Origin: Candidatus Colwellbacteria bacterium
GTDB lineage: Bacteria > Patescibacteriota > Minisyncoccia > UBA6257 > Colwellbacteraceae
NCBI GenBank assembly: GCA_028710275.1
Contig: JAQTUL010000004.1
Location: 11,646-75,645 of the forward strand
Direction of reading: 5' to 3'
DNA: 64,000 nucleotides
Shown: piece by piece, positions 3,681 through 56,379 of the stretch
Layout of the letters: the number at the start of each line of letters is the position of its first letter
Position numbering within the stretch: position 1 is the stretch's first letter
Position numbers and translations under genes: made by a program
The notes under the pieces: model-generated
Databases searched by the model: none
What the model was told of the DNA's origin: nothing
Seen by the model: only the letters and a program-made list of their open reading frames with translations

Positions 3681-5117
3681 ATGTCACAAGAAGCATCTCA
3701 ATCGATCCCTAAGGAGGATGTCGAGTTCTATGGTATCGACGAAGCCCATATGTTCTATGTCGAGGAGAAACAAGAGATCTATGATCTGTTTTGTGATATG
3801 TCGGAATTAGACGCAGATGTTAAGGTTCCGTTCGATGATGACGACATGAAACGATACAATAAGATCTGTAAGAGAGTAGACGAAATTAAGAATGAGATTG
3901 TATGGAATGAAAGACAAATTGTTGTTCATGCGGGAGAGGAACTGAATCCCGATAACATCTCATTTAAGGGATTGATTGAAGAACTCGACAGAGTTGAGAC
4001 TGAAATGGGGTCTATTTTCAGAAACAGATCAAACCCACAATATCATTTTGATATTGTCTTTTATCACAAGGGATGTCCGGATGGACAATGTGGCGCATGG
4101 ATTTATAAACGAAAGATGAAGGATCTCGGTATTCCAACTGATAAAGTTACATTCATTCCGATGATCGCAGGAAAGTATCCGAAAGAGACAAAAATCGATA
4201 AGAAGAGGGTTCTCATGATCGATGTCTGTCCGAAAAAAGAGGAGATTGAGGAGATTCTGACCAAATGCAGTGTGTTATATATTCTCGATCATCACGAGTC
4301 TGGAGAGACCGATACAAAGGATGTCAAATTGAGAGATTCAGAGTTTTCATCGGACTACAAACATAAGAATCTCCACGTGATTTTCGATATGAAGAGATGT
4401 GGCTCGCAGATTGCGTGGGACTACTTCTACCCACGCAATCATACACGAATTATTAAACGAGTGACCGAAGACCATCAGTTCAAAGAACTGCTATCTATTT
4501 CTGTATCGTTCTCAGACAAATTTGAGAGTAAAGACTCTTATATTACACTAGACTTTTTTGACACAGACAATCGACCATGGTTTATCGATGTTGTAGCAGA
4601 TAGAGATATCTGGAAATGGATGTACCCGTCATCGAAGGCGTTGGGAGCTTATCTCTTCTTCCATAAATACTGGTGGGATTCTTGTCTGGACTCAAACAAA
4701 CTCGACTATCTTATGACAGTACAATTACCAGAACTTCAGAAAATGAAAACTGATGGTGAACTTCTTCTTGAGATCGAAGAACGAGATGTTCAGGAAGCAG
4801 TACGATCATCATTTCTATGTGACTTTACCTCTCCATCAGGAACAGACTATAAAGTGCGTTTTGTAATTTGTAAACATACATTGGCTTCAGAGGTCGGTAA
4901 CAGATTGTCTTCAATGGACGACTGTAGTTTCGCTGCAATTGGAAGATATGATTATGATACAGATGAATGGTGGATCTCTTGTCGAGGAAAGGATAAGGTA
5001 AATTTATCGGTTCTGTGTCGAGAGTTTGGTGGAGGTGGGCATCCTAACGCGTCGGGATTCACAATGAAGAATGATGCAGGATCTCTTCAGAATGTGTTTC
5101 GAAAGATTAAAAACTGA
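3681..5117 (+). CDS. DHH-DHHA1 family phosphoesterase (RecJ/nanoRNase-like)
   Basis: 'ILDHHESGE' DHH motif, 'GGGHPNASGF' DHHA1 motif and a 'DxD'-type N-terminal motif. Start placed at the internal ATG (MSQEAS) to avoid overlap with the upstream gene. Confidence 0.75.
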   Translation: MSQEASQSIPKEDVEFYGIDEAHMFYVEEKQEIYDLFCDMSELDADVKVPFDDDDMKRYNKICKRVDEIKNEIVWNERQIVVHAGEELNPDNISFKGLIEELDRVETEMGSIFRNRSNPQYHFDIVFYHKGCPDGQCGAWIYKRKMKDLGIPTDKVTFIPMIAGKYPKETKIDKKRVLMIDVCPKKEEIEEILTKCSVLYILDHHESGETDTKDVKLRDSEFSSDYKHKNLHVIFDMKRCGSQIAWDYFYPRNHTRIIKRVTEDHQFKELLSISVSFSDKFESKDSYITLDFFDTDNRPWFIDVVADRDIWKWMYPSSKALGAYLFFHKYWWDSCLDSNKLDYLMTVQLPELQKMKTDGELLLEIEERDVQEAVRSSFLCDFTSPSGTDYKVRFVICKHTLASEVGNRLSSMDDCSFAAIGRYDYDTDEWWISCRGKDKVNLSVLCREFGGGGHPNASGFTMKNDAGSLQNVFRKIKN

Positions 5118-5176
5118 AACCGTACAAAAATGAATTAATACGGATTACCTTTTTATCAATCACACTTGATAAAAAG

Positions 5177-6295
5177 ATGAAGATCGTCAATTCCAAACGT
5201 TATTTTCTTACACCTATTAATCTGGATAAGTTGATTAAGAGAAGATCACACAAGAGTTACCAAGCAGAATGCAGAATCAATCTTTCACACCCTGAAAAGA
5301 TCGAAGAGGGATACCGTTATATTCTAAATTACAACTGTCTTCATAAGGAGATTTACAAAAAACTTATCTCTGATATCAAAAAGTCCAATACGATCGATCA
5401 GAAAAAGGTGAAGATGGCGAGTGATATCTTCTGGTCACTTTTCAGTGATTCATCTATTTCCGCTGTAAATTTGAAGGCAATCGGTATATTAACAGGAACA
5501 GAATCGACAGGATATAATGTGATGACCCAAACTACAGCAAACAGTACAGGTGAAGCATCACTAAATTTTAACTTCTGGTGTTCCTCTCCAGCACAATTTG
5601 CATTTCTAAATATTGTTATTATCACAACAGGTGAAATCGACAGTATCAAGTTCGATAGCAAAATTATTCATTGTAGTTCTGATATCTACAGTATGATAGC
5701 GAATAAGGAGATTTACACTCCATCAACCGAAAAGGATATGGTTATCTTTTGTTCTGGTGGAACACTAACCAAAATCCAAGCGTCTCACGCTCAAAAATAT
5801 TATAGTGAAATTGTGTGTTCGTTTTCAGTTCCTTATATTACTGATCCAAAATTGTGTAAAGTAAGAGTATGGGGTGAAGATAGACAGATCGATGATGCGA
5901 ATTTTCTCTTTCAAGAAGAAGGAGAGAGTTCTGATGATATATTCGGTGCGAGTGAGTACTGGAAAGAGTATATCTGTCTCGATAAGAATCGAGTTGATGA
6001 TATTAAGAAAGGGAGAAAAATTTCGATATTGGTCTCTCCAATGGAGTATAAACTACCTGAATATATCATATCAAAGTATGTTCAGATGTGTGATGATATC
6101 GCCGAGCAGAAATTATTGTGGATTTTGTGGAAAACAGGTCAATCTCTTCCAACCAATTCAAACAAGTCGATATTCTCTCTTGATAAAATTAAGAGAGCGG
6201 AGATTGATGGAGGATCAAATCTCAGTCACGAGATTATGACGTGTCATAGCGCCGAAGAAAGAGAGATCGCACCGAAAAATGATATTCCGGAGTGA
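5177..6295 (+). CDS. hypothetical protein
   Basis: 372-aa ORF with no recognisable motifs. Confidence 0.45.
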   Translation: MKIVNSKRYFLTPINLDKLIKRRSHKSYQAECRINLSHPEKIEEGYRYILNYNCLHKEIYKKLISDIKKSNTIDQKKVKMASDIFWSLFSDSSISAVNLKAIGILTGTESTGYNVMTQTTANSTGEASLNFNFWCSSPAQFAFLNIVIITTGEIDSIKFDSKIIHCSSDIYSMIANKEIYTPSTEKDMVIFCSGGTLTKIQASHAQKYYSEIVCSFSVPYITDPKLCKVRVWGEDRQIDDANFLFQEEGESSDDIFGASEYWKEYICLDKNRVDDIKKGRKISILVSPMEYKLPEYIISKYVQMCDDIAEQKLLWILWKTGQSLPTNSNKSIFSLDKIKRAEIDGGSNLSHEIMTCHSAEEREIAPKNDIPE

Positions 6296-6323
6296 ATGAT
6301 TATAAATCAGAATATCCACTACA

Positions 6324-6743
6324 ATGGTATTTTATATCGACAAACTTAGTGTTACCGGTACGATGATGGACGGAGAGACCAAAATTCTAACTACTGAAGT
6401 GTATGAAGACTACATGTCTGATGAGATCGATTTTTGGACAGGAGATATCAAGAATATCATGCGTCTCGATTTTGAGTATTTACATTCGGAAGAAGAAAAT
6501 GATGTATGGAGCTTTATCGAGAAGCATTCGAAGTATCTCATTAATCTCCAATCAATCTCTTTTGCACAGCCTCTCGGAAGTTGTCAAACTATCGATACAT
6601 TTCTCATGATGATTCAATCATTGTGTAACGTACAGATTGATCATATAGAGACAGGGATCGTTGTATATTCATCACATGAAAAATCCGATAAACCATATCT
6701 CGATCGATATTTTAATATCAAAACTATCACAAGCATTTATTGA
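6324..6743 (+). CDS. hypothetical protein
   Basis: 139-aa ORF. Confidence 0.4.
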   Translation: MVFYIDKLSVTGTMMDGETKILTTEVYEDYMSDEIDFWTGDIKNIMRLDFEYLHSEEENDVWSFIEKHSKYLINLQSISFAQPLGSCQTIDTFLMMIQSLCNVQIDHIETGIVVYSSHEKSDKPYLDRYFNIKTITSIY

Positions 6744-6809
6744 ATAAAAATGAATTATTTTAAAAGATACGGTATTGCACTACAAATTTGGAAGTAATCG
6801 CAAAACCAG

Positions 6810-7454
6810 ATGTCTTCCGATAAAACAGAACGCAAAGAGGTTCCCATTATTTTCGAGGATTCAGATGATGAGCAGGAGGTGATTCTGGAAGAAATTTCTT
6901 CCGACAGCCAGGAAGTTGAACTCGAAGAGGAGAAATCTCCCAAGGAAAAAGAGAAGGATGATGGAAGTATGTGGTTTCATGAAAAGGGAAAATTTACTCT
7001 CCACGGATTTACGATGTACGATGTTCTCATCACACAAGAACAATTCCAGTACGTGGAGTATTTCAAACGATCAGTGCTGAGAATAGATCTTCCCGAGGGA
7101 TTGAGTGAAAAGTGGAGACATCCACTCATCGGTTCCATGAGAGATAGAATTGAAAATGAATATGGGATGAAAGTGAAGGGGGTGTTTGGGAATCATTACG
7201 AAAAAGAAGGAAACGACTATGCACCGTACCACAAGGATTCATACGGAGATGGAAAAGGAGTATTTACTGTGTCTATCGGAGGAACCCGTATGTTCTACAC
7301 AAAAGATGACAAGACTGGTGTTGTAACTAAACATAAACTCGATGACGGGGATCTATTTTATTTCAACTCACAGTTTAACTCAAAGCACAAACATTCAATT
7401 CCCAAACTTAAATCCTACAAGGATCCTCGTATCAGCATTGTGTTTTTTGTGTAA
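6810..7454 (+). CDS. AlkB-like 2OG-Fe(II) dioxygenase (nucleic-acid demethylase family)
   Basis: 'APYHKDSYGDG' HxD iron ligand, a downstream His, and the C-terminal 'RISIVFF' that matches the AlkB 'R(I/L)S(L/I)TFR' motif. Confidence 0.6.
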   Translation: MSSDKTERKEVPIIFEDSDDEQEVILEEISSDSQEVELEEEKSPKEKEKDDGSMWFHEKGKFTLHGFTMYDVLITQEQFQYVEYFKRSVLRIDLPEGLSEKWRHPLIGSMRDRIENEYGMKVKGVFGNHYEKEGNDYAPYHKDSYGDGKGVFTVSIGGTRMFYTKDDKTGVVTKHKLDDGDLFYFNSQFNSKHKHSIPKLKSYKDPRISIVFFV

Positions 7455-9647: not shown

Positions 9648-9702
9648 AAATGAAATACCGATAAGTACTAACTGTGTTAGTACTTATCACCGACTCGAGG
9701 AA

Positions 9703-10143
9703 ATGGTTAAAGTTGTTGTGTTCGATGGTGTATGGAAAGAGGCAGAACCATTATTCGGACCAAAGACACTTTGGTTATATTCAGACAATGACACTAAGGA
9801 GGGTAAAATGGGACAGGATGTGATACGAGATCATCCGAACACATGTGGTATACCAACAAAAAAACTTCCAACAAAGAGTAAGTCGGCTCGATACGTAGAT
9901 GATGAATATGAAGAGAATAAGAAGAAAATTGTGACCGCGTTCAAGAGAGCGAGAATCATGATCAAAGTAAAGGGGTATGACACCGTAATCTTTCCTATAG
10001 CGGGATTTGGCAGAGATCTGAAGACGGCACCTCAGACATTACTACTACTCAATCAGGAGATGAGAAAATTTGTTGATGAGATGAACAAAGATGAGGTTGA
10101 GAAGAAAGAGAATACCGAGATCGAAGGATGGAATGTAGTGTAG
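9703..10143 (+). CDS. hypothetical protein
   Basis: 146-aa ORF. Confidence 0.4.
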   Translation: MVKVVVFDGVWKEAEPLFGPKTLWLYSDNDTKEGKMGQDVIRDHPNTCGIPTKKLPTKSKSARYVDDEYEENKKKIVTAFKRARIMIKVKGYDTVIFPIAGFGRDLKTAPQTLLLLNQEMRKFVDEMNKDEVEKKENTEIEGWNVV

Positions 10144-10145
10144 AC

Positions 10146-11150
10146 TTATTGAATATAATACATAGGGTCGAACGAATCTAATTTCTTCCCTTCATATGTA
10201 TAGTCTATCAATTTATAGATTGGGGTCGGACACATCTTTGATGCCCCAATCTTCGTTTGAATATCAGAGTATGCTTGTGTAGGATCAAGTTCATACCCCG
10301 AATAATCACAGTTTTTTATAAGTGTCAAAACCTTATCGGATCGATTTTCACTAGAGAGATCTCTTCCTAAAGCATAGATACTCTGAATGATAGAGTATGT
10401 ATCTGCTAGTTTATGGTCGAAGTAGATTGTATAGTTTTTAGAGATATCGTCATATCCCTTGGATTTTTTAGCGATTTCTTTGATAGCTGACGGTTCGTTC
10501 GCGACATTATCTTTTATAGTATGAAATATATCAGTCACACTACTGATATAACAACCACCTAGAGCAGACTTTACAATACTTTTTGCCTTCTTGGATATAT
10601 AGGGGGCCCCAAGAAAGAATTCTATATTATTCTTCGTTCCAATATCAATCTTGATATCACCGATAAAAGATTTTAGCTGATTACCTGTGTATGACGCATC
10701 CTCTGCTATAATACAAAGGGTTTTTTCAGTCTTTGCCAACTGTATCACATCTCTGATATCGGTCAATATGTGTGTAACTTTCTCTTGGAGAATTCCATAG
10801 TACAATAACCCAACCCATACCGGAGATTTTTTAATTGGTTCATTCCATGTCATACCGAGAATAAGAATAACAAAATTCTTAGGTTTATATACTGACACCA
10901 CAGTACGCACATCAGCCGATATTCGTTCTATCTTATCATAGAACTCAGAATACGGAACATATCTGGTGTATTTCCTGAGAAGATCGGCAAAAATTCTTTC
11001 AGACGAATCGTCATCTCCTTGACGGTTTATCCATGTAGTGAAATTATCATTATCCACAGGATGTCGTCCCGATTGTTTTATCGGAAGTTTTTCCTTATTC
11101 TCTTCATAAAAAAGATGAAATTTTTCAAGAGAGATCATTATATAATACAC
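10146..11150 (-). CDS. hypothetical protein with a phosphoribosyltransferase-like motif
   Basis: 'LCIIAEDASYTGNQL' resembles the PRT type I PRPP-binding motif (hhhhDD..TGgT). This is a weak call. Confidence 0.4.
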   Translation of the reverse strand: MYYIMISLEKFHLFYEENKEKLPIKQSGRHPVDNDNFTTWINRQGDDDSSERIFADLLRKYTRYVPYSEFYDKIERISADVRTVVSVYKPKNFVILILGMTWNEPIKKSPVWVGLLYYGILQEKVTHILTDIRDVIQLAKTEKTLCIIAEDASYTGNQLKSFIGDIKIDIGTKNNIEFFLGAPYISKKAKSIVKSALGGCYISSVTDIFHTIKDNVANEPSAIKEIAKKSKGYDDISKNYTIYFDHKLADTYSIIQSIYALGRDLSSENRSDKVLTLIKNCDYSGYELDPTQAYSDIQTKIGASKMCPTPIYKLIDYTYEGKKLDSFDPMYYIQ

Positions 11151-11184: not shown

Positions 11185-11631
11185 ATGGGTGGACCAGCTT
11201 ATATCGATGGAGATGAGGAGAAGTCATTTGACAATTTCTACGTATGTAGATTTTCTTATGGTGGATACGAATGGACGAGTACCGAACATGCTTATCAGGC
11301 AATGAAGTTTATCGATAAGGAACATATTGAAAGAATTAGATCAGAGACTGATGTTGCCGTGGTATATTTTCTCGGTCAGGTGGAATACGTTACTCATACC
11401 GATGAATGGATTAAGGATCATGAAAATGAGAAGATTCGTCTTATGTATGAGATCAACAAGGCTAAGTTTTCACAAAATGATGTCTTGAAGAAGATTCTTC
11501 TCTTTCGTGTTGGAGAGATTGAGTTCAGAGGAAATAGATTTTGGGGAAAGAAGGGAAAGAGAGGTCTTAACTGGGGTGGTAGAATTTTGACCAGAATCCG
11601 AGAAGAACTTCTCTCTATACAAGAGGTGTAA
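11185..11631 (+). CDS. NADAR / YbiA-like (DUF1768) domain protein
   Basis: 'FDNFYVCRFSYGGYEWTSTEHAYQAMKF' matches the NADAR signature (fSNFy...y.s.EhyfQa.Kf). Confidence 0.65.
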   Translation: MGGPAYIDGDEEKSFDNFYVCRFSYGGYEWTSTEHAYQAMKFIDKEHIERIRSETDVAVVYFLGQVEYVTHTDEWIKDHENEKIRLMYEINKAKFSQNDVLKKILLFRVGEIEFRGNRFWGKKGKRGLNWGGRILTRIREELLSIQEV

Positions 11632-11726
11632 CACTTAAAAGAATAGAATACAAAATCTTTAAGGTTCTGTATTCTCCGAGTTTTAAATTTAACAGAAAAA
11701 AATATATGTTCAATCAATAATTGTGA

Positions 11727-12077
11727 ATGAAGAAGTACTACATCGCTATTGCTGTTTTAGTCGTTATTCTCGGATTGATGTATTTCCAATGTTCACCCGG
11801 AGGATCTATGGGAGGTTCCAAGGGTAACGTTGATGTTACCTACTATTTTAATCCCGGATGTCCTCATTGTAGAAACTTCATGCCCGCGTGGAAGGACTTC
11901 GTTTCATCGGGAGGAGCTAACTTTACCGAGATAAATTGTGCTACAAATCCCGAGAGATGTCAAGGTGTGAGAGGAGTTCCTTGGGTTGTTTTCTCTAAGT
12001 CGGGTGGAACTCCTGTTCCGTTTACTGGAAATCGTGATAAGGCGTCACTCCAGGGATTCCTTAACTCAATGAATTAA
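11727..12077 (+). CDS. thioredoxin-fold thiol-disulfide oxidoreductase with an N-terminal signal anchor
   Basis: N-terminal TM helix followed by 'NPGCPHCRNFMPAWKDF' (CxxC active site). A hairpin lies downstream at 12110..12143. Confidence 0.6.
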   Translation: MKKYYIAIAVLVVILGLMYFQCSPGGSMGGSKGNVDVTYYFNPGCPHCRNFMPAWKDFVSSGGANFTEINCATNPERCQGVRGVPWVVFSKSGGTPVPFTGNRDKASLQGFLNSMN

Positions 12078-12152
12078 ATCACACCAACAGTTGAAAACTG
12101 AATTTTACTGTTAGAATACAATTTGAGACACTCGTATTCTAACTCACCGTAA

Positions 12153-13301
12153 ATGGCGAACGTAGAACAAACCAAAAAGATCGACATGGATGTCGAGAAC
12201 GAAGAGGACTTCAAACAGAGGTATCTGGATCTGAAGAGAATTTATGATTCAGAGAAAAAGGTGTTTGAATCTTCTGTGATTGTTGATACGGGTACAGAGA
12301 TCTACGCACCGTCTATTTTCACTAAGAAACCGACCGTCCCTGCACAATCTCCACCCAAGACCATTACCATGCTTAGGTGGAACTACGAAGATGATGATGG
12401 AAGTTGGGCACCAGCAACGCAAAGCTGGAATGATATCGTCACGGCAAAGTATAATGTGAATGACAAGAATGTACAGAAATTTACTGTCACGGTTGGAAAA
12501 TTTAACTATGACATATCTATTTGTGATGACAAAGGATATCAAGTAAACACGCAGACAAACAAGAAGCGAATGATTGAGTGTGAGAGAAGAGAAAAAACAG
12601 AGACACCGACTCTTCCGGTTATCGCGATCAGTCCCACGTATAATGTGGGGATTCCCGGTATCGTGTACGATGAAACCATTTTGAAAGCTTTCAAAATGTC
12701 TGGAGGTCCACCATCGGTTATTCCCATCTCTCAGGGAACTGATGAGTACATGGAGATCGAAGGCCGATTTCTGTATATTGGATACAATAAAAATCCAAGT
12801 ATGATTTCTCGTGGAGCGAGAATTACAGGAATTGATCGAATTCTAAGCCCTAATGTTGCTAAGAAATATCTTCTATCAAAGTCACTCTTATCTAACAAGA
12901 ACGAACGTCTTCTTTTTCATGGATGTAAAGAACCGTCGGTGTTCCAGAGTATTTTTAATGAAGGTCTCGATTTTAGAGAGTCTTCAGTAGGACTTCTTGG
13001 ACAGGGAATCTATATGGGAGATTCCCCCTTTTATCCACACAATGGTGGATTCACAGGATACCCTGATAAGAACGGTGTACGAACGATGTTTGTTGTAGCA
13101 TGTCTTGTTGGGTCAGAACACGATGCAGGAGATGTCTATCATTCCGATTCTACTACTAGATACGCATTTCAGGCCAAGAAAAAACCGGGTTCCAAATTCA
13201 ACTCTATTCGTGCCCAGACAACTGATGAGAATTGTGGAATCTACTGTGTGTACGATAATTCACAGTGTTATGTAACTCACGCGGTCTCTTACATTTTGTA
13301 A
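12153..13301 (+). CDS. WWE domain plus poly/mono(ADP-ribose) polymerase catalytic domain protein
   Basis: WWE-like 'LRWNYEDDDGSWAPATQSWNDIV'. PARP signature 'RLLFHGCKEPSVFQSIFNEGLDFRE...GQGIYMGDSPFY' (compare LLWHGSR...GKGIYFAD). Confidence 0.7.
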   Translation: MANVEQTKKIDMDVENEEDFKQRYLDLKRIYDSEKKVFESSVIVDTGTEIYAPSIFTKKPTVPAQSPPKTITMLRWNYEDDDGSWAPATQSWNDIVTAKYNVNDKNVQKFTVTVGKFNYDISICDDKGYQVNTQTNKKRMIECERREKTETPTLPVIAISPTYNVGIPGIVYDETILKAFKMSGGPPSVIPISQGTDEYMEIEGRFLYIGYNKNPSMISRGARITGIDRILSPNVAKKYLLSKSLLSNKNERLLFHGCKEPSVFQSIFNEGLDFRESSVGLLGQGIYMGDSPFYPHNGGFTGYPDKNGVRTMFVVACLVGSEHDAGDVYHSDSTTRYAFQAKKKPGSKFNSIRAQTTDENCGIYCVYDNSQCYVTHAVSYIL

Positions 13302-13339
13302 TATCCATATGTTTTATATCTTTGTTAGATATAAAACTT

Positions 13340-14236
13340 CTAATTACTATCCTCTTCACTATCCTCTTCATTTATCCATTTACGACAATTGGGACATGCT
13401 TTCACTTTGAGATCTGATAAACAGGCTCTGTGGAATTTGTGTCCACATCGAAGGGTATAATAATTCTTTGTATTCTCCATACAGATTGTACAATATTCAC
13501 TATGTTTTCTGTTCAACATGAGAAGTTCATTGATAAGGCAGTTGTCACATCTATCGTGTTCTTCCGAATAAGAATCAAATTGACGTATAACACCACAATG
13601 TTTACAGAAGATATATTTGTTGATATAATCGAGTATCGTTGAAAAAGATAATTTCAGACTAGGACCTCCAGTCTGAAGAATGAATAATTCATCATTAGGT
13701 GAAGTAATCCCATCAATAGATTTACCGATATAGAATTCCAAAATATATTCTTTTACCTTTGGGTTGTAAATAATTTCATATCCATAGAATTCCAACCCAT
13801 GTATATTCTTTATTTTACAATTTGAAAGTCCATAAGTAGTCATTTCCGTTTTCCCTTCAAATTTTTTACTCCATTTCGTAACAAACAATTCGATGAGCAT
13901 CTCCTTATACTCTATTTCGGCATCAGAAAGACCATAAATCTCTTTGTGTAAAATATTCCCGGAGTCATTAAGTTCCTCATCACTAAGAATTTCAGATGTA
14001 GAGATTGACACTTTCAATTGACGACATATGTTTATATCTAAATTTGTTAATGGTGAAATAGATCCGTCGGGATTCTGTTTTCCAATAACGGTCTTATTCT
14101 CTTTAGAAAAGACAAGATGCGTTTCTAAATGTTCGTAATTACCAAATTCATTCTTCTTTAACATAATACTTGAAGACTCAGACATAGAGATGATACCGGT
14201 CGATTCGTGAAGATCACAAGACTTTTCAGAACTCAT
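13340..14236 (-). CDS. RING-finger protein (putative E3 ubiquitin ligase)
   Basis: C-terminal 'CTICMENTKNYYTLRCGHKFHRACLSDLKVKACPNCRK' RING motif. Confidence 0.65.
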   Translation of the reverse strand: MSSEKSCDLHESTGIISMSESSSIMLKKNEFGNYEHLETHLVFSKENKTVIGKQNPDGSISPLTNLDINICRQLKVSISTSEILSDEELNDSGNILHKEIYGLSDAEIEYKEMLIELFVTKWSKKFEGKTEMTTYGLSNCKIKNIHGLEFYGYEIIYNPKVKEYILEFYIGKSIDGITSPNDELFILQTGGPSLKLSFSTILDYINKYIFCKHCGVIRQFDSYSEEHDRCDNCLINELLMLNRKHSEYCTICMENTKNYYTLRCGHKFHRACLSDLKVKACPNCRKWINEEDSEEDSN

Positions 14237-14265: not shown

Positions 14266-14979
14266 CTAATTGACATTTGAAATGTTAGTGAAGAGATTGG
14301 CTATATCGAGAAACAATGCGATAGATTCCAATGGGTAGTTTACATTATCGTTTGTAACATAATTAGACTTCTTTTTCAGTAGTTGAGTATCGTAGAGAAT
14401 AAATCCTGAAAACAGAACGATGGCTATACAACTGTAGATTTTAAATCGAGTGTTTAATCCGCTCACCGACGAATGAAAAATCATGTCACACACCTCCAGT
14501 ACGATAAGCGCGAACAGACCAAATAAGAGATATGACCCCCAAGATATAAAATCACAAGTTGAGAAGGTCGCGAATATGGATAATCCTATCGTCAACACAA
14601 GTGTCGTAACAATGGTACCGTTCAGTGTTCCCTTTTCCTCTGTTTTTTGATACATAGGATACAGTATAACTCCCATTGAGATAACAAAAACAAGCCAGAT
14701 AATATGTCTAGGAACGATATGTTTAAAATATTTTACACCAAACATTGATGCTAAACTTAGAATAAAGATCAAGAGAAGATGTGTACTTGTAAGTGTATAT
14801 TGATACTTGGCCAACTGTAGAACTGTAATACACGCTATAGCTATAGCTAATGAAACGTAGAGATATGTGTTTGATATATACAATGATGGAGTAATCTTTT
14901 TAGAAAGTGAAAAATAGAGATACCCTATAATAGATATTATCAATACAGATATCACTGTTTGTATCTTCGAGACATTCAT
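14266..14979 (-). CDS. multipass membrane protein
   Basis: 237 aa with about 7 hydrophobic helices. Confidence 0.5.
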   Translation of the reverse strand: MNVSKIQTVISVLIISIIGYLYFSLSKKITPSLYISNTYLYVSLAIAIACITVLQLAKYQYTLTSTHLLLIFILSLASMFGVKYFKHIVPRHIIWLVFVISMGVILYPMYQKTEEKGTLNGTIVTTLVLTIGLSIFATFSTCDFISWGSYLLFGLFALIVLEVCDMIFHSSVSGLNTRFKIYSCIAIVLFSGFILYDTQLLKKKSNYVTNDNVNYPLESIALFLDIANLFTNISNVN

Positions 14980-15778: not shown

Positions 15779-16399
15779 TTAAATACGCATAGATGTCGCG
15801 AGAGCAATGAAAATCCATCCCATAGTGAGAAGAGGAAGACCCATCGAGAACAATCTATTCTCACCACACTTTCCTTTAAAAATACGAGTTATACCCTTCT
15901 CTCGTTCAATATTGATTTTTGTTGTACTGATGATAATCAATGTGACACCTATAAGAGAGATCATTTTCCGCAGTTTAGAACTATCGGAATCAACAAATGT
16001 TATGTTCTCTGTATTACTCGATCTACTTATAGCATAGATGAAATAGAGCCATCCAACAATAAACATAGTTCCTCCACCGATAATGAGGGCTTTACTGTTC
16101 ATAGTTTCTGATGCTGATCGGCTAATGAGAATCATTGATCCCATGATCAGAGATGATGCGATGAGAGCATTTTTATTAGATCCCGGATTAAACTTTAGAA
16201 CACCTGATACAGGATCTCTTCGAAGGGATAGAGAATACATAAACACAATCCATCCGAAAACTAAAACCGTAGTTCCGATAATGTGCTGGGTTCCAACGTT
16301 CTCCATATGATGTTCCATGTAAACTGTTCCTGTTAGAATACAGGTAATACCAGCCATCGATAGAATGAATTTTCCACTATCTATACACGCGTCACTCAT
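15779..16399 (-). CDS. multipass membrane protein
   Basis: 206 aa with several TM helices, convergent with 15359..15730. Confidence 0.45.
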   Translation of the reverse strand: MSDACIDSGKFILSMAGITCILTGTVYMEHHMENVGTQHIIGTTVLVFGWIVFMYSLSLRRDPVSGVLKFNPGSNKNALIASSLIMGSMILISRSASETMNSKALIIGGGTMFIVGWLYFIYAISRSSNTENITFVDSDSSKLRKMISLIGVTLIIISTTKINIEREKGITRIFKGKCGENRLFSMGLPLLTMGWIFIALATSMRI

Positions 16400-16517
16400 T
16401 TATCAGAGAAAAGATAAAAAGGATTTTCAGAGTTTGAAGGTCAACCGTTTCCGAAACTTGAATCCTTTCAGCGGAGAAGACCCATTTATAATTTAAAGTT
16501 TAATTTTAAATTATAAA

Positions 16518-16907
16518 ATGCCCACATCTTTTATTATTAAGGATATTTCAAAAAATTATGATAAGCATACAACTATATCAATAAATAATAGAATTGTTTT
16601 TAGTATCGATTGTTCGGGGTCTATGTGTTGTAGTGAATCAACTCTTGGTGACCGAATAAATTTATCAACAGTCACTAAAATATTAAACTCTATTATTACT
16701 GATATAGAATACGAGGATGCATATTGTGCTGGTATGACATGGAAAATGCCTATTTATATTGTATTTGAAAAAAATGGATGGCAATTAAAATTAAATAAGA
16801 ACGGTGAAAAAATTACATATCTTATCTCTAAGGTCAAGTATAATAAAAGTATCAAACATACACATAAATTTCTTGTTAATGAACCAAACGTAGTAGAGTC
16901 TATTTAA
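16518..16907 (+). CDS. hypothetical protein
   Basis: 129-aa ORF in a very AT-rich stretch. Confidence 0.3.
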   Translation: MPTSFIIKDISKNYDKHTTISINNRIVFSIDCSGSMCCSESTLGDRINLSTVTKILNSIITDIEYEDAYCAGMTWKMPIYIVFEKNGWQLKLNKNGEKITYLISKVKYNKSIKHTHKFLVNEPNVVESI

Positions 16908-19489: not shown

Positions 19490-21379
19490 ATGCCTCCATC
19501 CCGTTCACGTGACGATGATGATGTAGTCGATAACTACTACGATCTGGACGATAAGGATTCTCGTACGGTCGGGATAAAGGAACTCGATCTAAATACTCTA
19601 TATCCACAGCATCCTCTCGACTATAAAAATGGAAGTAAATACTGTATTATCGGCAAGCCTGGTTGCCATAAGAGAGGTACAAAAATTATCTTGTTCAATG
19701 GTGAAACTAAAAATGTCGAAGATATTCAATTGGATGATGTGTTAATGGGAGATGATTCTACCCCTAGACATGTTTTAGGTCTTGCAAGAGGAAGAGAAGA
19801 AATGTACGATATTATCCCTACAAAAGGTGATAAATATACCGTAAATAAAAGTCATATTTTAACTTTAAAATCATCAGGATTTGCAAATCATCCCAAAGGT
19901 GAAGTGATAGATATTTCAGTCAATGAACTTCTTAATAAACAGCAGATATGGAGAACAAGATTCAAAGGATTTAAAGTATCGATTGAATTCGAAGAGAAAA
20001 AATTAGATATTCATCCTTATCTCATGGGATATTGGTTGGGAGATGGAACATCAAATAACGCTGAAATCACGACTGCAGATCACGAAATTGTTACGAATTT
20101 CGATTCGTTATTATATGAATATGGACTAAAATTAAGTAAGAGTGGATGTTCTCCGTACAGATATGGAATTACTCTTATTCATCAAAAAAATAGAAAGGGT
20201 AAAAACCAGTTTATGAACTGTTTGCGAGATAATAATCTTGTTAATAACAAACATATCACTCATCAGTATAAATGTAATAGTCGACAGAATAGGTTGGAAC
20301 TTCTTGCTGGATTGTTAGATTCGGATGGATCGTATAACGTGAAAAGTAAATGTTACGATTTTATACAAAAATCAGAGAAATTATTTGACGATGTTTTATT
20401 TTTAGCCAGATCACTAGGATTTGCTTGTTACAAACAACCATGTAAAAAATCATGTATGTATAAAGGAGAGAAACGAGAGGGTAATTATTTTAGATGTGTA
20501 ATAAGTGGAGACATAGACCAAATTCCATGTAGAGTAGAACGAAAAAAAGCATCCCCTCGTACACAAATAAAAGATGTTTTGGTTACAGGATTGAAAATGG
20601 TTTCTGTAGGAATTGATGATTATTATGGATTTGAACTAGACGGTAATAACAGATATCTTATGGAGGATTTTACAGTTACACACAACACCGGTAAATCAAC
20701 TATTATAAAATCTATTCTATACGCTAAAAAGCATATCTTTTCAGTAGGAGCATTTTGGTCTGGAACAGAGGATAGTAATGGGTTTTTCAAATCGTTTACA
20801 CCAACTACATTTATTAGAGATGGAATGATTGATGCGTCGAGTGCAGCATCACTTAAACCGTTAGAAGATCTCAATAAACGACAGAAGATCGCAAGAAAAT
20901 ATTTAGAACCCAGAGGAGATAATCCATGGTGTGTTGAGGTATTAGATGATTGTACTGCTGATCCTAAGTTCTTAAAGAAAACCGTTCTTAAGGATACTTA
21001 TAAAAATGGACGACACAAGGCTAAGATGCATCTTCTCTCGTTACAGTTCTGTCTTGATATTCCTACCGATACGAGAGGATTGATCGATGGTACATTTATT
21101 TGTCGAGAAGGTAACTCTAAGAATAGACTAAGATTATTTGAAAATTTTGGAAGTGGAGTCGACAATATTCACGATTGGAATGATCTTATGGATGGTCTCA
21201 CCGACGATTACTGTTGTATGTTTGTTAATAACAAGGCTACTACTAACAATATAGAGGATTGTATTCAATACTACAGAGCGGATCCTGATAAGATTCCTAA
21301 GGATTGGAAGTTCGGGTGTAAAGATTATTGGGACTTCCACTATGATAGATATAACCCTAACTTTGTCGAGACATTCTAA
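19490..21379 (+). CDS. A32-like virion DNA packaging ATPase containing an intein in the Walker A motif
   Basis: Exteins give 'CIIGKPG|TGKSTIIKSILY' (Walker A) and 'VLDDCTADP' (Walker B). They total about 290 aa, which is typical of A32. Confidence 0.8.
   Translation: MPPSRSRDDDDVVDNYYDLDDKDSRTVGIKELDLNTLYPQHPLDYKNGSKYCIIGKPGCHKRGTKIILFNGETKNVEDIQLDDVLMGDDSTPRHVLGLARGREEMYDIIPTKGDKYTVNKSHILTLKSSGFANHPKGEVIDISVNELLNKQQIWRTRFKGFKVSIEFEEKKLDIHPYLMGYWLGDGTSNNAEITTADHEIVTNFDSLLYEYGLKLSKSGCSPYRYGITLIHQKNRKGKNQFMNCLRDNNLVNNKHITHQYKCNSRQNRLELLAGLLDSDGSYNVKSKCYDFIQKSEKLFDDVLFLARSLGFACYKQPCKKSCMYKGEKREGNYFRCVISGDIDQIPCRVERKKASPRTQIKDVLVTGLKMVSVGIDDYYGFELDGNNRYLMEDFTVTHNTGKSTIIKSILYAKKHIFSVGAFWSGTEDSNGFFKSFTPTTFIRDGMIDASSAASLKPLEDLNKRQKIARKYLEPRGDNPWCVEVLDDCTADPKFLKKTVLKDTYKNGRHKAKMHLLSLQFCLDIPTDTRGLIDGTFICREGNSKNRLRLFENFGSGVDNIHDWNDLMDGLTDDYCCMFVNNKATTNNIEDCIQYYRADPDKIPKDWKFGCKDYWDFHYDRYNPNFVETF
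19664..20686 (+). mobile_element. intein (341 aa) with LAGLIDADG homing endonuclease, inserted in the packaging ATPase P-loop
   Basis: Starts 'CHKRGTKIILFNGE', carries LAGLIDADG blocks 'LMGYWLGDGTS' and 'LLAGLLDSDGS', and ends 'FTVTHN|T'. Confidence 0.75.
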
Positions 21380-36240: not shown

Positions 36241-39200
36241 ATGACCAGGAAAACTGATTTCCTCTATAAGAAGAAGCAAAATATCACACCTGTTCTTGTC
36301 TTCTCGCCAAGAATGTCTAAAGCTATCATTATCGAGTACGATTCGGAAGAGGAGATCCAGACACCGGATGAGAATTCGGATGTGGAAATTCTGGAGGAGG
36401 GAGAAGAGATCTTCGATGAGGATCAGGAGGAGACTAAGGAATCGGAACGGATTCCGGAAATGAAATCCCTGAAAATCTCCGGAGAAAAGAAGAGGAAACT
36501 TACGGAGGAGGAGATGTACGAGATTACGGACTTTCTTCAAGTTGATCCTGATAAAGACTGGGAAACATCGATGGCAGTTATGGATGAGAATCGAAACGAT
36601 CTCTTTGAGCAGTTGAAGAATATCGAGATCTATCCGAGTCAGATTCCTAAACTGAAGATGGGAATCAAAAACGATTATGAAACATCAAAGATTGAACCGG
36701 GTACCGCAATCGGGTGTGATAGTTCTCTCGCGATTGGTGAGCCGACGACACAAATGTCGCAGCCAAAGACGACTAAGGTCGTCTTGCGACAGGGTAACAA
36801 AACAATCAATACAACGATGGGGGAGTTCATCGACTCGGAGATTGAGAAGGCGTGGATGATCGTATCAGAGGACAATGGATCAGAGATTGTTCCAGACGGC
36901 GTATTCAAAGTGACAGAGATCATGACTGTTTCTAAAGACGAAAAGGTAAGTTGGAATAAGATTACCGAACTCTCTCGACACCCTGTGAATGGAGATCTTG
37001 TGAGAATCAAGACTGATAGCGGGCGAGAGACCGTTTGTACTCTCTCACATTCACTTCTCACTCGAAACCTTAATGGTGTGGTTCCTATTCTTGGAAGTGA
37101 TATTCAAGTTGGTCATCGAGTACCGGTGTTCTTTCGAACACCCGAAGTAGATAATCCTATCTCAGAGATCGAGTTGTGGAAAGATACTACGGTTGATCTC
37201 ACATCATCGTTCGGTGAGTTTATCGGAATCTACATCGCGGAGGGAAGTACTTGTAAGAGTAGTAATTCTGTTGTCGTTACCACTAATCAGGAATACTATA
37301 AAAATGTATCATACGAATTCTTTTCAGAAATGGGAAAAAACGCTAAAACAAGAGAAAAACCTCTTCATAAAATTCAGGGAAGTAAAAAGGAATATAAAAG
37401 CACGGATCACATAATCTCTCACAAGCTTCTGTCACAATGGCTTCGAACGAATATCGGTACCTACTCTCACAACAAGGAGATTCCTGGATTTATCTATGGA
37501 TGTAAGAGAGAGTTCATCGCGGGTGTTCTTCGTGGAATGTTTGATGGTGATGGTAACTTTCATGGATCGAGAAAAAGTATCAAGTATCACACAACATCGA
37601 GTGAACTCATCCAACAAGTTGCATTCCTTCTCTCGTATTTCGGTATCTTCTCAACATATCAGATCGAGAAGGAGGCTTGTGATGAACACAGAGCGTTGTG
37701 GGTTCTGTTGATCTTCGGACCCAAGTTCGGAAAGATTTTCTCCGAACAGATCGGAACTAACAACGAGAAGAATAAAAGAGAGCTTGATTCATACATCAAT
37801 GATAAGGATGGAAGAAATTTCATTGATCAGGTTCCCAACTGCGCTGAACTTGTTAGTAAGATTGGTAGAGGACTGAAACTTCCCGGCGCATCAAGAAACT
37901 ATGGTCGATGGGTGAAAAAGGAGTCTGAAGGATCTTGTATCGGTAAGAATACTCTGATCGAGTATGTGAAGCTTTTCACCGAAAAGAATGAAGAGAAAGA
38001 TGCAGGGTTCGAAGATGATATCTCTCTGCTTCAACAGGCGATCGACGCTGATGTGATCTGGGATAGAGTTGTTGAGGTTGAGATTATCAAGGCTGACCCT
38101 GACGAGAAGGTGTATGATTTCTCAGTAGCAATCAATGAAACTTTCGCTACTCAATCGGGTATCTTAGTACACAACACCTTGAATTCAATCGATTACAAAG
38201 AGCATATCGTGGTCAAAAACGGTACATCTGTAACATGCCCAAAGATTGGCGACTTTGTGGATAAAATAGTCATTGATAATAAGAAAGATGTCAAGGTTTA
38301 TGATGAGGTTACCGAATACGTAGACATCAATTTCATGAACCTGGAGACACCATGTGTCGATGAAAATGGAAAAATGCATTGGAAAAAAATAGAAGCTGTC
38401 ACCAGACATCCACCTCCGGGAGGTAATAAACTTTTGGAGGTGAAAACTCAAACGGGACGTCGAACAACTGCAACAAAAGCTAAATCTTTTTTGCTGCGAA
38501 GAGATAACAAAGTGGTCGGGGTAAATGGATCCGAATTGACAGTTGGAGATAGACTTCCGGTCACTGTTAAGTTTCCGAGACCTCTTGAAAATGACCGATT
38601 GAAAACCATCAATCTAAGTAGATATCTCAGTAAAGAGAAATTCGTATTTGGAACTGATCTCTGGAAAGCAAGAGAGATTAAGGAGAGATACAATAAAGGT
38701 GGAAGAAAAGAATGGAAAGACGAAATTAGAGAGGAATATACATATGGAGGAAGAAATACCAGATGGTGGTCTGATAATTTCGGAATCGATTTCACTCTCC
38801 CGTATCATAGATGTGATGCAGCAATGGATGCGCTCGAAGGAAAGAAGAAGGAGTATATCGGAAATGAGATTATCAAGAAAGGAATGGTGTACACAACAAG
38901 ACGATCTGTTGGAGAAGTGAATGAAATCCCAGAAGAGTTTGAACTGGATAACGATTTCGGATTTGTTGTTGGTGCTTACATTGCTGAGGGACATTGTGCA
39001 AATACCGGAACACAATGTATCATCAGTAACAATGATGAAAAGTTTCGAAAGAGAATTGAGACGTGGTGTGATAAACATAAACTCGGATATCATGTTCAGG
39101 TACAACACGATAAGAATTTTAAGGGAGCAACCAGTACAGATCTCCGAATTCACTCAACGCTAATGGTTGAATGGTTTACCAACATGTGTGGTAACTATTC

Positions 39201-55274: not shown

Positions 55275-56379
55275 ATGTCTGCTCCTCCATCACACGAATC
55301 TCTACTCCGTCTTTCCCAGTATCGGGGAGACGCAACCAGCTGTATCAGTCTTCTGATCGGATCAAACTCGGATCCATCATCCACTTCTAAACTCCTTATC
55401 AAGGAGAACAGTGCAGCATCCAACATCAAGGATCGCGCAAATCGTAAGCATGTGACTACCGCTCTCAAGTCTTGTTCTGAAAAGCTCAAGACGTACAAGA
55501 GCATTCCTGATAACGGACTCGCTATTTTCGCCGGGTATTGTGTTTGACGAAACTGGGAAAGAATCGTATATTTGTGAAGCGATCACACCACCTCTTCCTA
55601 TTAAGATGGGATTGTATCGATGTGATAAGATGTTCTACACGGATTATGTTCTCTCACTTTACAAAAACTTTGATAAGTTCGGATTAGTTCTTATTGCAGG
55701 TGAAGAGGTTACGATGTATTCTCATTGTGGAACAAAAATCGACTTGATCGATAAGTTCACCGTTCACCGTCAGAAGAGTATGAAGATGGGTGGTCAGTCT
55801 GCTCAGAGATTTGGTCGGATAAGAGAGAATCAGATTGGTGAGTATGTAAAGAAGATCTGTGAACGATTGGAGAAGAACTATGTCGACTTTACGGTTGGAA
55901 GTCCATCTGTAAAGGGGCTGTTTATCGGTGGAGTAGGAGATATTAAGGACAAGGTCATCATGTCTCCGTTTCTCAACTCTCTTGTCTCTTCAAACATCAG
56001 AAAGGTTATCACTATGTCGGAGATCAGTTTGGATAAACTCATGGAATCATGTGGAGATCTCACATCGTATTCAGAGGAGGAGAAGGAATCTTTAGACGAG
56101 ATTGAGCTCTACACATCACGAGACCTGTCGAGAACAGTCTACGGGTATGATCTACTCCTTAAGAATATCAAAGATGGTGGATTAGAGAAGATCTACATCC
56201 ACTCGATGGTTGAGGAGAAGTTCGGTAAGGAGAACTTCGAACTAGCCAAGACGATGGGATGTAAGATTATACTACTTCAAGGAAAGTCAGCCAAGTCTAT
56301 CTCATTTGTTAATTCGTATGGAGGTGTACTTGGAGTTACATGGTATGATATCGAAGACAATCTTGTCGATGAAGAGTAA
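55275..56379 (+). CDS. eRF1: eukaryotic peptide chain release factor subunit 1 (eRF1), needing a +1 ribosomal frameshift at 55542..55548 (GUU UGA C)
   Basis: Frame A (55275..55547) encodes eRF1 domain 1: 'TSCISLLIGS...AASNIKDRANR...NGLAIFAGYCV*'. The +1 frame (55540..56379) continues 'FDETGKESYICE...MGGQSAQRFGRIRE' with the GGQ motif. The junction matches eRF1 'VYCGTIVTDEGKEK'. Confidence 0.8.

Follow-up and report, generated by a model that had tools for sequence, protein, structure and literature searches.

The region described here is a 3-kb block within a 64,000-nucleotide stretch of contig JAQTUL010000004.1 (positions 11,646 to 75,645; hereafter, the window). It comprises genes for a NADAR protein, a thioredoxin-fold protein and a protein with WWE and PARP domains, followed on the opposite strand by a gene for a RING-H2 protein. 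An earlier prediction, made from the sequence alone (the original prediction), had proposed that these genes together provide a writer, a reader/ubiquitin ligase and a processing enzyme for ADP-ribose marks. All four open reading frames (ORFs) were located exactly where it had placed them, and an hmmscan check was run in which the NADAR, thioredoxin, WWE plus PARP and RING calls each scored above the Pfam curated cut-off. The positions of these and other features are collected in Table 1.

Proteins encoded in the window were identical to NCBI entries MDD4930862-66, from an 83,885-bp contig (locus tags PHG66_017xx) in a metagenome-assembled genome (MAG) labelled 'Candidatus Colwellbacteria bacterium'. 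In the window, 62-63 ORFs were called and about 50 of these were scanned for domains. Glycosyltransferases were encoded in addition to Hsp70 and a Bax inhibitor, and among related contigs one carried a nucleocytoplasmic large DNA virus (NCLDV) major capsid gene, one (L001) RNA_pol_N, and another PolB with inteins. Because the gene content is viral (Rpb1 with inteins, Hsp70, RING, PARP, Bax inhibitor and an eRF1-like protein), the window almost certainly represents a Mimiviridae-like NCLDV, the Colwellbacteria label being the result of mis-binning. The bacterial (candidate phyla radiation) origin implied by the NCBI label was rejected on gene content, and the public record for this 84-kb 'Candidatus Colwellbacteria' contig is hereby corrected to viral.

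The PARP PF00644 match (E 1.7e-10, 41.2 bits against a cut-off of 26.7) covered profile positions 20-196 of 199. Alignment of the catalytic domain revealed an H-Y-I triad, the feature on which the original prediction had staked the PARP assignment. H256 lies within LLFHG and Y287 within GQGIY, which aligned with the FHG and GKGTY motifs of the PARP15 NAD+ site, and H256, Y287 and I363 were invariant in four orthologues. Across 36 relatives the His and Tyr were at least 90% conserved; the third position was occupied by I, V, M, T, A or L, and by Glu in none, and it aligned with V or M of proteins named PARP11-like and TIPARP-like by NCBI. Polymerases proper (PARP1/2 and tankyrase type) need a catalytic Glu there for chain elongation. 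Because the third triad residue is I363 rather than Glu, the enzyme is predicted to be of the H-Y-I mono-ADP-ribosyltransferase type (PARP7/11/12/14/15 clade), and the polymerase type to be ruled out. The nearest solved structures by sequence were those of the mono-ADP-ribosyltransferases PARP15 and PARP14. The best Foldseek matches of the AlphaFold2 (AF2) model were the catalytic domains of PARP15, PARP14 and PARP10 (E ~1e-6; target-normalised template modelling (TM) score ~0.6), in a model whose predicted local distance difference test (pLDDT) values were below 50 over residues 274-300 and 320-366.

Upstream of the catalytic domain, the WWE-type motif was present as originally described (W76..E79-D80-D81-D82-G83.W85...W92), and the WWE call held in the profile search, above the Pfam threshold (PF02825; E 2e-5, 25.3 bits against a cut-off of 21.1). 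The AF2 model had pLDDT values of 83-90 over residues 70-150, and Foldseek matched the TRIP12 WWE domain (TM 0.70, E 3.7e-4), in agreement with the half-beta-barrel fold of WWE domains. Residues Y119, Q130, N132, T135 and R139 aligned with TRIP12 Tyr809, Gln818, Asn820, Thr823 and Arg827, respectively, which contact the adenine and the proximal phosphate (PMC11269756), and all five were invariant in four orthologues. Judged by these residues, the domain is likely to bind an ADP-ribose-type ligand. Y78 occupies the position of RNF146 Tyr107 and TRIP12 Trp771, and the loop at residues 78-85 (YEDDDGSW) is acidic; in RNF146 the corresponding loop carries the basic pocket for the distal phosphate of iso-ADP-ribose (PMC11269756). 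Since the loop is acidic where that of RNF146 is basic, specificity for iso-ADP-ribose cannot be claimed. For this protein, the original statement that WWE domains bind iso-ADP-ribose is too specific as regards the ligand, although the core ADP-ribose contacts are conserved.

At least two further PARP paralogues were found elsewhere in the same MAG, so the virus has at least three, and paralogous PARP genes form a small family in this virus clade. The protein was 74%, 52% and 50% identical to its counterparts in three related viruses, and the orthologues were 382-540 residues in length, with a variable N-terminal extension that was either coiled-coil or acidic. An exhaustive HMMER search of 1.84 billion representative proteins returned 216 matches at E ≤ 0.001, of which 3 were at E ≤ 1e-30; by this measure the PARP family appears to be small and divergent. 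The 36 relatives compared above were drawn from this search, and 20 of them also contained a WWE domain. No PARP relatives were recovered in scans of IMG/VR or GTDB genomes, and a single 1.2-kb fragment was recovered in the JGI metagenome scan. At locus L052 of the same MAG (P0006 = MDD4931579.1), two H-Y-I PARP genes of 553 and 615 residues were arranged in tandem (3745-7362), and the orthologous locus in the virus of the L003 lineage (L057) contained one PARP gene of 505 residues (5153-6670). Another giant virus (L054/L055, with PolB containing inteins) carried a gene for a stand-alone 196-residue PARP domain (10001-10591), with a Fapy DNA glycosylase gene one gene downstream and a gene for a microbial-type PARG catalytic domain (~16240-16780) 5.7 kb downstream; this PARP and PARG may be a different writer-eraser combination.

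Candidate transcription signals were then compared across the window. The element AAAANTGA was present at -35 to -85 of the start codon in 18 of 62 genes, with 0.74 expected. The instances were mostly AAAAATGA or AAAACTGA, that is, the fifth position was mostly A or C; examples were found at positions 5126, 6275, 6746, 7903, 9646, 12094, 15309, 29183, 29596, 35439, 41198, 46344 (minus strand) and 52899. The Mimivirus early promoter is AAAATTGA, and Mimivirus transcript ends obey a 'hairpin rule'. The canonical AAAATTGA was not enriched in the window (4 found, 9.7 expected), and AAAANTGA is probably, by analogy, this virus's version of the Mimiviridae early promoter. A perfect stem of at least 9 bp lay within 70 nt of the stop codon at 30 of 63 gene ends, compared with 1.7% of coding controls, which suggests a transcript-end 'hairpin rule' resembling that of Mimivirus. 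Both genome-wide signals would fit a Mimiviridae-like virus. A scan for sigma-70 promoters and intrinsic terminators was uninformative, and is irrelevant to a eukaryotic virus. Among the four genes of the block, AAAANTGA was found upstream of the PARP gene only; NADAR, thioredoxin, RING, Bax1-I and the neighbouring 330-residue gene all lacked it. The PARP element was kept in the orthologous loci of the three related viruses (L001, L002 and L003), at -61 to -72 there. The thioredoxin gene had a different conserved upstream element, AAAAAATATATGTTCAA.

The NADAR protein matched PF08719 (E 1.3e-15, 58.5 bits against a cut-off of 35.1) and aligned from end to end with E. coli YbiA (PDB 2b3w; E 1.6e-10). 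Glu113, in the last strand, aligned with the Glu of the YbiA 'VE' motif, and the EH..Q motif also aligned with YbiA; a Glu in the last strand defines the YbiA family of NADARs (PMC11125620). The TIGR02464 score of 53 was below the equivalog cut-off of 73.7, and genes of the riboflavin pathway were not seen in the window. NADARs hydrolyse guanine-N2-ADP-ribose as well as cytidine-ADP-ribose and act as antitoxins to DarT1-type and YarT-type ADP-ribosyltransferases (ARTs) (PMC11125620; PMC12945103). The protein encoded here probably hydrolyses base-linked ADP-ribose on nucleic acids. One direct test of a NADAR on the mark made by PARP15 was found in the literature, and its outcome was negative: in vitro, guanine-N2-ADP-ribose was removed and PARP15-made guanine-N1-ADP-ribose was not, the N1 mark being removed by TARG1 (bioRxiv 10.64898/2026.03.31.715305). 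Because the tested NADAR left the PARP15 product intact, no known chemistry joins a PARP-type writer to a NADAR eraser.

The thioredoxin-fold protein matched PF00085 (E 1.1e-8, 35.4 bits against a cut-off of 23.5). A hydrophobic N-terminal anchor (residues 5-20) and a C45-P-H-C48 active site were read from its sequence; the best NCBIfam match was the protein disulfide isomerase (PDI) domain TIGR01126, below threshold, and the protein is named 'protein disulfide isomerase family protein' by NCBI. It is most likely a membrane-anchored PDI-like oxidoreductase with no link to ADP-ribose.

The RING-H2 domain matched PF13639 (E 3.2e-7, 31 bits against a cut-off of 27.3), and its C3H2C3 ligands (C249, C252, C264, H266, H269, C272, C281 and C284), which show the cross-brace spacing, were invariant in 12 homologues. 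Domain searches detected no WWE, macro, DTC or other recognisable ADP-ribose-reader domain in this protein, and its N-terminal module (residues 24-80) matched no Pfam family. The protein most likely acts as an E3 ligase whose substrate-binding domains are its own and specific to the virus. Because RING genes are multi-copy here, as illustrated by the second one in the window, the presence of a RING gene beside the PARP gene is less significant. The Bax1-I gene lies directly upstream of the RING gene in tandem, with a gap of 29 nt and no hairpin 3' of Bax1-I, and the same layout was found in L001. Because of the tandem order, the short gap and the missing hairpin, RING may be co-transcribed with Bax1-I, and the two genes may be associated. 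Two further observations concern these proteins. Residues 24-80 (13997-14167, minus strand; LKKNxFGNYEHxETxLVFSK..VIGKQ) shared 51% identity with part of the SAP-domain proteins P0167-P0170, and this module appears to be a mobile domain. In the IMG/VR giant-virus contig L031 (9153-13434), a Bax1-I-like gene lies beside a tandem array of RING paralogues.

To the left of the block, the original prediction had noted a PRPP-binding-like motif in the ORF at 10146-11150. The gene is read here from the ATG listed in Table 1; an alternative GTG start at 11150 would give a protein of 334 residues. The phosphoribosyltransferase (PRTase)-like loop was present; PRTase-CE (PF24390) gave an E value of 0.12-0.2 for the window protein and 0.028 at best among three orthologues, all below the 27-bit cut-off, and no PDB sequence match was obtained. 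An interval of 46 bp separates the gene from NADAR, which runs divergently, and its product was 79-84% identical to two orthologues, making it the second most conserved of the proteins compared. The DUF7831 protein encoded beyond it had no similarity to NADAR, and nothing meaningful was matched in the PDB.

Table 1. Genes, domains, promoter-like elements and hairpins in the window (positions are those of the window; residue numbers refer to the encoded protein).
Feature	Position	Strand	Remarks
3' gene-end hairpin, example	9660-9688		
DUF7831 protein, 146 residues	9703-10143	+	Pfam DUF7831, E 1.7e-22; AAAAATGA 57 nt upstream
Conserved 330-residue protein, PRTase-like loop LCIIAEDASYTGNQL	10146-11138	-	ATG at 11138 taken as start
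YbiA-type NADAR, 148 residues, bare domain	11185-11631	+	Pfam NADAR PF08719
Hairpin 3' of NADAR stop codon	11645-11675	+	15-nt arms, 87% complementary
Thioredoxin-fold protein, 116 residues, PDI-like	11727-12077	+	Pfam Thioredoxin PF00085
AAAACTGA, early-promoter-like element	12094-12101	+	59 nt upstream of PARP start codon
Hairpin 3' of thioredoxin stop codon	12110-12143	+	10-bp perfect arms
WWE-PARP protein, 382 residues	12153-13301	+	NCBI MDD4930866.1, annotated hypothetical
WWE domain, residues 76-141	12378-12575	+	Pfam WWE PF02825
ART (PARP) catalytic domain, residues 218-379	12804-13289	+	Pfam PARP PF00644
Catalytic triad H256, Y287, I363	12918-12920; 13011-13013; 13239-13241	+	
Hairpin between convergent PARP and RING stop codons	13311-13337	.	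11-bp perfect arms; common to both genes
RING-H2 protein, 298 residues	13340-14236	-	N-terminal beta module 24-80, acidic linker, alpha/beta domain 105-205, zinc ribbon, RING
Zinc ribbon CxxC..CxxC in RING protein			C211, C214, C230, C233
RING-H2 zinc-binding domain, residues 249-285	13382-13492	-	zf-RING_2 PF13639
Bax inhibitor-1 (TMBIM) family membrane protein	14266-14979	-	Pfam Bax1-I, E 3.5e-27
629-residue ORF, Hint and homing-endonuclease (LAGLIDADG) domains	19490-21379	+	
Rpb1, eukaryote-type RNA polymerase	36241-41190	+	Two stretches each matching intein-splicing and LAGLIDADG domains
Second RING-finger gene, 172 residues	41255-41773	+	zf-RING_2, E 4.8e-9; AAAACTGA 57 nt upstream
eRF1 domain-2 / VLRF1-like protein (translation-release-factor-like)	55606-56379	+	

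Conservation of the neighbourhood was assessed in the three related viruses, which had been found by exact-protein look-ups. All three were collinear with the window over the whole 10-20 kb available, unrelated genes included; since this collinearity extends far beyond the four genes, their conserved order says little. The interval between PARP and RING was occupied by RNA_pol_N in L001, by a 345-residue gene in L002 and by a kinase gene of ~500 residues in L003/L009, two contigs that overlap end to end. In the L003-L006 lineage, which gave the same result in four independent samples, DUF7831, the 330-residue gene and NADAR had decayed as a block (L003 846-1665): short fragments of DUF7831 and NADAR residues 69-142, in two reading frames, were left, and the 330-residue gene was gone. 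The flanking thioredoxin and PARP genes were intact in this lineage. In L002 there was no tblastn match to DUF7831 at the corresponding position. Among more distant relatives, members of the RING family with 42-44% identity (L007, L011-L014) had no PARP, NADAR or thioredoxin gene within reach, and none of these was near any of 36 IMG/VR loci with RING-domain matches. The PARP loci L052 and L054-L057 had no NADAR, thioredoxin, RING, 330-residue or Bax1-I gene nearby. Neither NADAR nor the 330-residue protein had a match when IMG/VR was scanned.

Taken together, the locus is probably, with a chance clearly better than even, a collinear Mimiviridae-like stretch of separately transcribed accessory or host-interaction genes and not an integrated ADP-ribose module. 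Several points weigh against this reading. PARP and NADAR were the only ADP-ribose-related genes in the ORFs scanned, with one gene between them, and ART-NADAR pairs are genuine functional units in bacteria, as in DarT1-NADAR and YarT-YbiA (PMC11125620). The order NADAR-thioredoxin-PARP...RING was kept in all lineages that could be examined, though these are close, and with three related genomes the neighbourhood comparison had low power. The early timing assigned to the PARP gene draws on analogy with the Mimivirus promoter, and the N-terminal or middle domain of the RING protein could in principle bind ADP-ribose. If PARP and NADAR were each single-copy, their proximity would be unlikely to have arisen by chance; this argument is weakened by the further PARP paralogues (at least two) and the other RING gene, and because the cluster was picked post hoc among many possible themes.

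The module as originally proposed is quite unlikely. In it, the WWE-PARP protein would write the marks, the RING protein would ubiquitinate the proteins bearing them, much as RNF146 or Deltex does, and NADAR would take the marks off or process them, the set being directed at host or viral proteins or against NAD-based defence. All of its domains are real, the genes lie within 3 kb in an order kept in three related viruses, and the two uncharacterised domains of the RING protein leave room for ADP-ribose binding. Against this, NADAR, thioredoxin and PARP have separate 3' hairpins, with RING sharing that of PARP, and only PARP has the upstream AAAANTGA. Adjacency was seen only in broadly collinear relatives, each with a different insertion between PARP and RING; NADAR was a frameshifted stump in a lineage that retains thioredoxin and PARP; distant RING members and PARP paralogues never occurred with these neighbours; the RING protein has no recognisable reader domain and the thioredoxin no link to ADP-ribose; and a NADAR assayed in published work spared PARP15 guanine-N1-ADP-ribose (bioRxiv 10.64898/2026.03.31.715305). 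For the lack of shared signals, the insertions, the NADAR decay, the lone relatives and the reader-less RING, the claim of a writer, reader/ubiquitin ligase and processing enzyme acting together was not upheld, and it should not be propagated as a system. A related reading, namely a self-contained cassette in which an early WWE-mono-ART writes the marks, a YbiA-type NADAR erases them and a RING-H2 protein reads mono-ADP-ribose through its N-terminal or middle domain, is very unlikely; if true, it would provide a viral route for mono-ADP-ribose-dependent ubiquitination and extend NADAR chemistry to PARP-type products. A smaller arrangement would be a writer-eraser or toxin-antidote-like pair on nucleic acids, in which the mono-ART modifies bases or ends of host RNA or DNA, NADAR protects or resets that of the virus, and RING and thioredoxin are bystanders. 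Bacterial ART-NADAR pairs provide a precedent (PMC11125620), human PARP10 and PARP15 (and PARP11 for RNA ends) modify RNA (bioRxiv 10.64898/2026.03.31.715305), and the viral NADAR, one gene away, has the YbiA-type Glu and an EH..Q motif that aligns with YbiA. However, the NADAR tested removed guanine-N2- but not PARP15 guanine-N1-ADP-ribose (bioRxiv 10.64898/2026.03.31.715305), the two genes have different promoter contexts, and no NADAR gene lies near the remaining PARP paralogues of this virus. Furthermore, NADAR is a pseudogene beside an intact PARP gene in L003-L006, a state that a toxin-antidote system could not survive if the virus itself were the target of the toxin; such a pair is judged quite improbable. 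The decay in that lineage can also be turned towards the left-hand side of the locus, where DUF7831, the PRTase-like 330-residue gene and NADAR could form a set for NAD, ADP-ribose or nucleotide processing to which PARP is merely adjacent. The three genes decayed jointly, NADAR and the 330-residue gene diverge over only 46 bp, the latter encodes one of the best conserved proteins compared, and its PRTase-like loop is accompanied by sub-threshold PRTase-CE matches in all three orthologues. That assignment is nevertheless below threshold, a single deletion of contiguous DNA can account for the joint loss, and DUF7831 had no match at its position in L002; this set is unlikely.

On the preferred reading of separately transcribed genes, the PARP protein would be made early, since a AAAANTGA element lies upstream of its gene. 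With NAD+ as donor, it would mono-ADP-ribosylate targets of the host or the virus; these are most likely proteins, but may include RNA ends or bases, as with human PARP10, PARP11 and PARP15. The WWE domain would bind an ADP-ribose or adenine-nucleotide moiety and thereby direct or regulate the enzyme. NADAR, thioredoxin and RING most likely act on their own.

The locus can be compared with several known systems. RNF146 (Iduna), a poly(ADP-ribose)-dependent RING E3 ligase, shares the RING and WWE domains, which here occur in the same small genomic region: RNF146 combines both in one polypeptide, whereas in the virus the WWE domain is part of the PARP protein and is missing from the RING protein, and the basic iso-ADP-ribose phosphate pocket of RNF146 is replaced by the acidic viral loop. 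The DarT1-NADAR and YarT-YbiA toxin-antitoxin pairs resemble the viral arrangement in that an ART gene lies close to a YbiA-type NADAR with the last-strand Glu. Those pairs are operons with DarT-type or HYD1-type DNA-targeting toxins, whereas the virus encodes a eukaryote-type PARP with a WWE domain, a thioredoxin gene and hairpins separate the two genes, and NADAR was dispensable in a sister lineage. With E. coli YbiA, a riboflavin-intermediate N-glycosidase and guanine-ADP-ribose hydrolase, the viral NADAR shares the bare YbiA domain over its full length; it differs in its sub-equivalog TIGR02464 score and in having no riboflavin pathway genes in view in the window.

The PARP protein itself has clearer counterparts. 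Human PARP11 and TIPARP (PARP7) have the same domain order, with WWE ahead of a C-terminal ART domain, and an H-Y-hydrophobic mono-transferase triad; the catalytic domains of PARP12, PARP14 and PARP15 are likewise close, and proteins named PARP11-like and TIPARP-like were recovered by the profile. Compared with human PARP11 and TIPARP, the viral protein is virus-encoded, is ~25-30% identical and has a variable N-terminal extension, and it carries an extra segment between strands of the catalytic domain (residues 320-360), where the AF2 model was poor. The same domain content and type of host genome are found in giant-virus WWE/PARP proteins in UniProt and BFVD. The top BFVD match, A0A5J6VJB5 ('PARP catalytic domain-containing protein', Megaviridae environmental sample), was near full length (E 7.5e-10, 17% identity), and annotated WWE/PARP proteins already exist for Megaviridae, Bodo saltans virus, Aureococcus anophagefferens virus (AaV), ChoanoV1, marseilleviruses and IIV-6 (100L). 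No experimental work on giant-virus WWE/PARP proteins was found in the literature searched. With such proteins already known, what the present one adds is a predicted PARP11/TIPARP-like WWE mono-ADP-ribosyltransferase with an early-type promoter. Its clade has at least three H-Y-I paralogues, one of which combines a well-preserved WWE domain with an early-type promoter, and it is a reasonable candidate for studying mono-ADP-ribosylation by large DNA viruses of protists against their hosts.

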